From assembly GCF_003334815.1 (NCBI RefSeq), contig NZ_QOWO01000008.1: a DNA stretch of 64,000 nt. One strand, 5' to 3'. The translations under genes were made by a program, and so were the position numbers. Under the pieces are notes generated by a model. That model was not told the origin of the DNA. It ran no database searches and worked only from the letters and a program-made list of their open reading frames with translations. Below, one piece after another: positions 46,390 to 47,004 of the stretch (the first letter of the stretch is position 1; each line of letters starts with the position of its first letter). Source of the stretch: Escherichia coli (GTDB taxonomy: Bacteria; Pseudomonadota; Gammaproteobacteria; Enterobacterales; Enterobacteriaceae).

Positions 46390-46695
46390 AGATTCCTCTA
46401 ATTAAATTACTGGACACCGAAATCATTGTATAATTAAATATACAACGAATTAACCGCTTGCATAATTAGGCACAACACTGCCTGAAACAATCGATAAAGA
46501 ATATGATTTATTACAATGTAATCATTAATTGCTAAGGAATAACCCAGTTGCTATTTAGAATATATATTTATCAGTTTTAGTAATTTAAATCCCATAATTA
46601 ATGTGAATATATACAATATTTTTAGCACAACGCTATGCGCACTGTCACCCGCTCAACAGATCACGGTTATCGTTCGTTTTTTATACTGTTCAGGG

Positions 46696-46730
46696 ATAAA
46701 AAAAGGCCCCTGTTGAAATTGCAGGGGCCT
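46696..46730 (-). terminator. Rho-independent terminator downstream of cutC (also the expected 3' end of MicL)
   Basis: Minus strand: AGGCCCCTG-caatttcaa-CAGGGGCC followed by TTTTTTTAT. Confidence 0.8.
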
Positions 46731-47004
46731 GGTACGAGCAAGCATCATATTGGGCGACATGATGCAACGGTAAAAATCATTTGGCCTGATGGCGTTCAAT
46801 GATTCCTTTCATTTCAGCAACCGCCGCCCCGTCTACGATATAACGCGAATACTCGTCCGCGTGTTCATCTGATGACATGGACAATCCTTGATTACGATAA
46901 CGCATCGGTGAGGCTTGCCACGCTCCCGCGGAGCTATGGACTTCCAGCACTCCGGCATCGAGGAAGTGGTGCAGGTTTTCTGCACGGACTCCTGCTCCGG
47001 CCAT
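46697..47004 (-). ncRNA. micL: sRNA MicL (RyeF), sigma-E-dependent, encoded within the 3' part of cutC; boundaries approximate
   Basis: Placed by position only: MicL is known to start inside cutC and end at the cutC terminator (about 308 nt primary transcript). I did not verify the internal sigma-E promoter in the sequence. Confidence 0.35.

Follow-up and report, generated by a model that had tools for sequence, protein, structure and literature searches.

The gap between torY and cutC on the Escherichia coli chromosome is conspicuous for its length and its AT richness, and the locus raises the question of what this 387-bp spacer contains. The window that we analyzed is a stretch of 64,000 nucleotides from E. 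coli (contig NZ_QOWO01000008.1), whose spacer is 100% identical to that of E. coli K-12 strains; window positions are used throughout and are obtained by subtracting 1,911,743 from the NC_000913.3 coordinates of strain MG1655. A previous sequence-only reading of the window had proposed that the spacer holds the torYZ promoter and the cutC/MicL terminator, and that it is a region bound by nucleoid proteins. We are fairly confident that the spacer is a composite, formed by a known small RNA (sRNA) with its terminator and by an H-NS-bound, AT-rich control region of the inserted torYZ operon. The central facts on this DNA are already in the literature and the earlier reading is essentially right; the conservation of a ModE-type box across genera is a small addition to what is known.

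MicL-S and the shared terminator

The part of the spacer that adjoins cutC corresponds to a described sRNA. MicL was reported as an sRNA embedded in the 3' end/untranslated region (UTR) of cutC and ending at the cutC terminator (Guo 2014). In the window, the Rfam family RF02654 matched 46698-47005 with a score of 381.9 bits (E = 6e-117; gathering threshold 56 bits), and the match spans the whole model (1-308 of 308). Comparison with the published MicL and MicL-S (Guo et al. 2014; RF02654) revealed no difference: the match to the model is full length, the sequence of 46698-46777 is identical to that of MG1655, and the hairpin and U-tract are shared, although this covers only about 80 of the 387 bp. 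The terminator is formed by the stem GGCCCCTG (46729-46722), a 9-nt loop, the stem CAGGGGCC (46712-46705), and a U7 tract (46704-46698); a simple terminator scan skipped it because its loop limit was 8 nt. The Rfam match and the published description thus support the terminator that had been placed in the spacer by the sequence-only reading. What that reading missed is that about 80 nt of the spacer are MicL-S itself, which makes up 79 of the 387 bp; it also overlooked the inserted torYZ block to which the AT-rich part belongs and the ModE-box-like palindrome in that part.

These 79 bases contained no variable site (nucleotide diversity, pi = 0.000) in eight diverse E. coli strains sampled over the range of identities, and MicL-S is nearly identical in Escherichia fergusonii, Salmonella enterica, and Citrobacter koseri. 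In the model proposed here, the 80 nt next to cutC are the Hfq-dependent MicL-S together with the shared terminator, an old element under strong purifying selection.

The AT-rich 308 bp as the edge of the torYZ insertion

The origin of the other 308 bp was approached by comparing gene order and sequence with those of relatives. Directly after yecM-cutC, E. fergusonii, Salmonella, and C. koseri carry a convergent cmoB-cmoA-yecN-yecE-yecD block. The cutC-cmoB gap of E. fergusonii measures 80 bp (locus L051, 5248-5327) and is exactly MicL-S, with the MicL terminator abutting the cmoB stop codon. In local alignments, homology with these relatives ended at 46695-46698, at the last U of the terminator, and restarted at about 42666-42784, on the cmoB side of the cmoB-torZ gap. 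Since homology halts at the terminator and resumes near cmoB, the approximately 3.9 kb that comprise the AT-rich DNA, torY, and torZ are lineage-specific, and the AT-rich 308 bp is the leading edge of this torYZ insertion. No terminal repeats were found flanking the insertion, just chance 9-mers. The cmoB-torZ gap (42671-42834) contains REP-like palindromes (GCCGGATGCGGCGTGAACGCCTTATCCGGCCTAC; GTAGGCCTGATAAGC...GCATCAGGC) and a GC-rich hairpin, GCGCCCGTTTCCGGGCGC, that adjoins the torZ stop codon; its cmoB-proximal part also occurs in Salmonella and C. koseri.

A scan of one genome per species showed adjacency of cutC and torY solely in Escherichia, namely in E. coli, E. whittamii, and Escherichia sp. 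E1V33; the E. albertii contig stops short of the gene upstream of torY. The nearest TorY proteins outside Escherichia (Citrobacter, Trabulsiella, and others) are 57-61% identical and are encoded in different gene contexts. CutC identity is 81-87% in named Citrobacter and 88% in E. fergusonii. In most genera, torY is likewise preceded by a long AT-rich noncoding gap (200-1,300 bp, GC content 0.27-0.46), and the AT-rich upstream stretch seems to travel with the torYZ operon. Two Citrobacter genomes carry a tRNA gene (L019, 1318-1391; L025, 1392-1465) at about 1.1 kb upstream of torY, and cspA-type thermoregulator leaders are found close upstream of torY in Budvicia (L030, 1594-2045) and Vibrio anguillarum (L036, 1676-2092). 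Because of these tRNA and cspA-leader neighbors, the contexts of torYZ are varied and some of them island-like. According to our model, the 308-bp control region would have arrived with the torYZ block and would have been placed just after the terminator in the lineage of E. coli, E. albertii, and E. whittamii.

Sequence divergence of the 308 bp was then compared with that of coding DNA. Its pi was 0.057, and third-codon-position values were 0.050 for torY, 0.034 for cutC, and 0.064 for yecM; identity to K-12 dropped to about 82% in both E. whittamii and E1V33, and in E. albertii to 67%. The AT-rich 308 bp evolves at about the neutral rate. Since pi is near third-codon values and identity falls in relatives, most of this DNA is unconstrained at specific bases, and we propose that it drifts near-neutrally because most of it matters only through its composition. 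No similarity was detected between the 308 nt and torY upstream regions outside Escherichia, apart from a palindrome described below.

H-NS occupancy and the promoters of torYZ

Published binding data from two independent sources place H-NS on this DNA. The spacer was flagged 'HNS' from H-NS genomic SELEX (systematic evolution of ligands by exponential enrichment; Shimada 2014), and the aerobic and anaerobic H-NS peaks obtained by chromatin immunoprecipitation with microarrays (ChIP-chip; Myers 2013) both enclose the entire spacer after conversion of coordinates. The peaks were assumed to be given in U00096.2 coordinates, and the assumption was checked with the sigma-70 peaks of Myers at 1948653 (aspS/yecD) and 1958021, which fit the aspS-yecD and yecM-argS gaps only in this way. 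The H-NS-bound region that had been suggested from composition is therefore borne out both in vivo, in the two oxygen regimes, and in vitro. The best match in the spacer to the H-NS nucleation motif TCGATAAATT was a weak one of 8/10, and there are 81 such matches in the window. In published data, which bear on torY only indirectly, O2-dependent expression of torZ and a new FNR peak within torZ were observed only in a delta-hns delta-stpA strain.

We infer H-NS silencing of torY. Because the 308 bp are very AT-/TpA-rich, H-NS would polymerize over them and over torY, and this coverage would hold torYZ and the promoter-like sequences of both strands at a constant low level. The torY spacer resembles acquired regions silenced by H-NS, such as bgl, proU, and the locus of enterocyte effacement (LEE), and DNA covered by H-NS that contains spurious promoters, in being the AT-/TpA-rich margin of a lineage-specific insertion, and it shares with them occupancy in vivo and in vitro, dense promoter-like sites on the two strands, and low constitutive expression. 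The torYZ block differs from such islands in its small size (approximately 3.9 kb) and in a coding GC content near the genome average (0.51 for torZ and 0.475 for torY). To our knowledge, no dedicated anti-silencer exists for torYZ.

Because a strong terminator lies directly upstream, torY needs a promoter of its own. In genomic SELEX, the sigma-70 holoenzyme binds the cutC/torY spacer in vitro, and the promoter GTGACA-18-TAAAAA has been assigned to torYZ (Shimada 2014), in line with the torYZ promoter that the earlier reading had located here. The -35 element of this promoter is conserved and its -10 element is variable among strains. With a crude sigma-70 weight matrix, another site on the torY strand, TTAATT-17-TACAAT, ranked 16 of 640,000 scored window positions and beat the score of GTGACA-18-TAAAAA. 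The same matrix gave a density of promoter-like sites in the AT-rich part about five times that of the window, on both strands. Such dense sites on the two strands are the usual picture of DNA covered by H-NS.

No anaerobic sigma-70 peak was present in the spacer in data from chromatin immunoprecipitation with sequencing (ChIP-seq), the nearest ones being at the torY 3' end and at argS (Myers 2013). The peak at the torY 3' end (about 45350; occupancy 577 aerobic and 835 anaerobic) was labeled 'torZ' in that study. The start of torZ (45264) follows it at a distance of approximately 87 nt, which suggests an internal torZ promoter inside torY.

Expression of torYZ has been reported to be low and constant, without induction by trimethylamine N-oxide (TMAO); in a uropathogenic strain, modest induction of torZ by hypochlorous acid (HOCl), copper, and paraquat has been described. 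Consensus scans of the spacer for FNR, NarL, TorR, ArcA, CRP, and IHF gave nothing convincing. The torCAD promoter is a natural comparison, as it controls the paralogous TMAO reductase operon; unlike it, the torY spacer lacks a TorR decamer (the best match is 8/10 and lies inside the MicL terminator), a NarL heptamer, and an FNR site. The lack of a TorR decamer agrees with the reported absence of TMAO induction of torYZ. In another study, a GalR operator was predicted in silico between torY and cutC (MG1655 1958198, about 46455; score 11.8).

A ModE-like box upstream of torY

A palindrome resembling a ModE box is located 33-60 nt upstream of the torY ATG and reads, in the torY sense, TTCGTTGTATA-TTTAAT-TATACAATGAT. 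The ModE consensus of E. coli, quoted by Rodionov et al. 2004 as ATCGNTATATA-N6-TATATANCGAT, specifies 20 positions, and the palindrome agrees with it at 16 of them. This is the best ModE match in the 64 kb; the next one, with five mismatches, also lies in the spacer, and all others have at least six. When the 308 nt were shuffled with preservation of composition, four or fewer mismatches were reached in 0.1% of trials (P ~0.001). Established ModE operators scored in the same way showed four (modA and moaA), three (dmsA), and two (napF) mismatches, each far ahead of the runner-up of its region. The weaker match in the spacer, ATCGATAAAGAATATGATTTATTACAAT at 46490-46517 (5/20 mismatches), lies 128 nt upstream of the torY ATG, overlaps the 8/10 match to the H-NS motif, and is weakly retained in other Escherichia.

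The core of the box, TTGTATA-N6-TATACAA (56-37 nt before the torY ATG), matches on both strands and is the sole element that the 308 nt share with the DNA upstream of torY in other genera. In Citrobacter and Trabulsiella it is found again at about -305; the arms are conserved, whereas the spacers vary. Boxes with two to five mismatches were found upstream of torY in Escherichia, Citrobacter, Trabulsiella, Entomohabitans, Budvicia, Yersinia massiliensis, Leminorella, and Limnobaculum, and none of this type was found upstream of torY in Vibrionaceae. These matches point to a probable ModE operator in the spacer, and control by ModE is plausible because TorZ is a molybdoenzyme.

The torY box has the same 11-6-11 palindrome as the operators of modABC, moaABCDE, dmsABC, and napF. 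It is like those of modA and moaA in its fit to the consensus, and it also precedes a molybdoenzyme operon. As in the modA operator, -10-like hexamers are overlapped: the spacer and the -10 (TACAAT, 46425-46430) of TTAATT-17-TACAAT fall inside the box, as does a perfect TATAAT on the opposite strand (46429-46434). It differs from the established operators in being known here from sequence and in its distance to the start codon, for which Escherichia and other genera are about 250 bp apart. The moaA operator is accompanied by a molybdenum cofactor (Moco) riboswitch and the torY box is not; no Rfam match to this riboswitch was obtained in the window or in 20 torY loci.

Molybdate-bound ModE would bind the box and tie transcription here to the availability of molybdenum. 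Because the box overlaps -10-like hexamers on both strands, it could serve to repress either promoter or to activate the divergent one; ModE binding at the box and the direction of its effect are put forward here as predictions. A genomic SELEX study of ModE by Kurata and coworkers (2013) reportedly describes two new ModE-dependent promoters, morA and morB, on the antisense strands of yghW and torY, and we take ATTACT-17-TATAAT to be a candidate for the morB promoter. If so, ModE binding at this site is already published. In its widest form, the proposal is that torYZ would be a conserved and unrecognized member of the ModE regulon across Enterobacterales, that its operator in Escherichia would lie over divergent -10 elements and 33 nt from the start codon, and that ModE and H-NS would switch between torY and the 'morB' transcript. 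We regard this wider proposal as tentative and, taken whole, rather unlikely.

Several points weigh against H-NS silencing and ModE control of torY as read here. The resolution of H-NS ChIP-chip is several hundred bp, and no entry for derepression of torY in an hns mutant was found in the published data examined. The start positions of torY transcription, and with them the placement of the box relative to the promoter in use, are predicted. The distance of the box from the ATG is 33-60 nt in Escherichia vs. 160-385 nt in other genera, and its mode of action may differ between them. Within E. coli its conservation does not clearly exceed that of the DNA around it (2 of 28 columns variable vs. 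12.7% overall), and several strains carry five mismatches in it. Apart from the SELEX report attributed to Kurata, ModE binding is predicted from the match to the consensus.

Less probable readings: a hidden product or neutral filler

The spacer might instead encode, as its main function, a further unannotated sRNA or small protein, for instance the 'morB' transcript opposite torY, and the promoter-like sites on the + strand (TATAAT at 46429-46434 and TATACA-16-CATAAT at 46439-46466) and the + strand open reading frames (ORFs) of 37 and 55 aa would be in keeping with this. A covariance-model (Rfam) scan at E-values up to 1, however, returned MicL alone, plus a sub-threshold match that is the MicL terminator. 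The putative torY leader and the opposite-strand transcript did not show unusually stable structure (z = -1.07 and -0.19), the CATAAT hexamer reads CTTAAT in EDL933 and three other strains, the region diverges at the neutral rate, and the MG1655 RefSeq annotates nothing here. We therefore consider a hidden product improbable.

Slightly less probable still is that the AT-rich 308 bp is an insertion scar or neutral filler, to which H-NS would bind by composition without regulatory effect, and in which the ModE-like palindrome would be chance TATA-rich sequence. Near-neutral drift, the lack of detectable similarity to other genera outside the box, the tendency of AT-rich DNA to form TATA-rich palindromes, and a box that in E. 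coli is no more conserved than its flanks are all what such filler would show. Against it, shuffled sequences seldom produce a box of this quality, the same type of box precedes torY in eight genera whose upstream regions are otherwise unalignable, RNA polymerase holoenzyme binds the spacer in vitro, and a promoter is required for torY downstream of the strong terminator.

Composition, size, and neighborhood of the spacer

The GC content of the spacer is 0.34 overall and 0.31 in the 308 bp at 46390-46697, and positions 46425-46624 are the lowest-GC 200 bp of the 64 kb (GC 0.24, z = -5.7). The runner-up, 34341-34540 in the ruvA-yobI-yebB region, is nearly as extreme (GC 0.255). TpA frequency in the 308 bp is 0.127, about three times the 0.042 of the whole window, and within the top 0.1% of 308-nt windows. 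The two AT-rich strings quoted in the sequence-only reading are present, at 46555 and 46600, but its extended A/T tracts stand only in part: the DNA is AT-rich as described, and the longest pure A/T runs, of 13-14 nt, are by our estimate close to the chance expectation for this composition. AA/TT dinucleotides showed no significant 10-11 bp phasing in the spacer. Since they are unphased and run lengths are near chance, the tracts reflect AT richness and not phased A-tracts. The curvature check that had been suggested thus gave no sign of A-tract curvature, and intrinsic curvature was rejected on the basis of AA/TT phasing.

A single match to the Fis core pattern GNNNAWWWWWTNNNC was found in the spacer, and an anaerobic IHF ChIP-chip peak at about 46682-47710 (U00096.2 1956449-1957477; Myers 2013 Table S4) spans cutC and reaches into the spacer at its MicL end. 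That the spacer is mainly a curved, Fis- or IHF-organized architectural element and not an H-NS-silenced promoter is very improbable, since beside this one Fis match and an IHF peak that abuts the spacer on the cutC side stand the unphased AA/TT dinucleotides, a sole, weak IHF consensus match with one mismatch, and the position of the IHF peak mostly over cutC.

The position of the spacer between torY and cutC agrees exactly with the ORF list and the RefSeq annotation, and no ORF in it exceeds 60 aa, as previously stated, the longest being one of 55 aa on the + strand (46635-46802). Among the 55 intergenic gaps of the window it ranks first in length; as the next ones measure 337, 326, and 309 bp, the description of the spacer as unusually long applies moderately and not in the extreme. 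Its sequence is present in single copy in 5,425 of 5,426 complete E. coli genomes, and about 32 of the 5,425 retain less than 80% of it. In E. coli DS26-1 (L005, 2459-4146), an IS1A element stands in place of the spacer's AT-rich part and of the 5' end of torY, and MicL and cutC are untouched. Beyond cutC, the gene order is yecM (-) and then argS (+). For torZ, the mechanical ORF list gives a TTG start at 45282 (815 aa) and RefSeq a start at 45264 (809 aa). The coordinates of all features are collected in Table 1.

Table 1. Features in and around the torY-cutC spacer, in window positions.
Feature	Position	Strand	Basis
torY-cutC intergenic spacer, 387 bp	46390-46776		ORF list and RefSeq annotation
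AT-/TpA-rich torYZ upstream region, 308 bp, GC 0.31	46390-46697		Composition, diversity, end of homology
torYZ insertion, ~3.9 kb, approximate extent	42785-46697		Local alignment and gene order in relatives
MicL sRNA, 308 nt, sigma-E dependent, start within cutC	46698-47005	-	Rfam RF02654; micL b4717 in MG1655
MicL-S (formerly RyeF), 80-nt processed form	46698-46777	-	Guo 2014
cutC/MicL intrinsic terminator	46698-46729	-	Sequence and Rfam structure line
GGAACTT, -35-like element	47032-47038	-	Read from sequence
H-NS ChIP-chip peak, anaerobic (U00096.2 1955116-1956791)	~45349-47024		Myers 2013 Table S3
H-NS ChIP-chip peak, aerobic (U00096.2 1954944-1958210)	~45177-48443		Myers 2013 Table S3
TCGATAAAGA, 8/10 match to H-NS nucleation motif	46491-46500	+	Motif scan
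ModE-box-like palindrome	46422-46449		Consensus match
GTGACA-18-TAAAAA, sigma-70 promoter, predicted start ~46612, leader ~220 nt	46619-46648	-	Shimada 2014 SELEX, located here
TTAATT-17-TACAAT, top promoter-like site on torY strand, predicted start ~46418	46425-46453	-	Sigma-70 matrix
ATTACT-17-TATAAT, top promoter-like site on opposite strand, predicted start ~46441	46406-46434	+	Sigma-70 matrix
TATACA-16-CATAAT, second promoter-like site on + strand	46439-46466	+	Tool scan, prediction
GAATATATATTTATC, single match to Fis core pattern	46558-46572		Consensus only; 42 matches in window
torY Shine-Dalgarno GAGGA, 4 nt before ATG	46394-46398	-	Read from sequence
torY	45289-46389	-	ORF list and RefSeq annotation
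torZ	42835-45264	-	RefSeq
cutC	46777-47523	-	ORF list and RefSeq annotation

Implications for torYZ

The conspicuous AT-rich gap is fully explicable by a 3' UTR sRNA, an insertion junction, and coverage by H-NS, and beyond the tidying of annotation in a well-studied genome the finding on the spacer itself matters little. Some interest now attaches to torYZ as a stress-inducible S-/N-oxide reductase. A switch operated by ModE and H-NS, if true, would explain why torYZ has appeared constitutively low under all conditions so far, and the box, if functional, would provide a testable regulator for an operon long called constitutive and weakly expressed.

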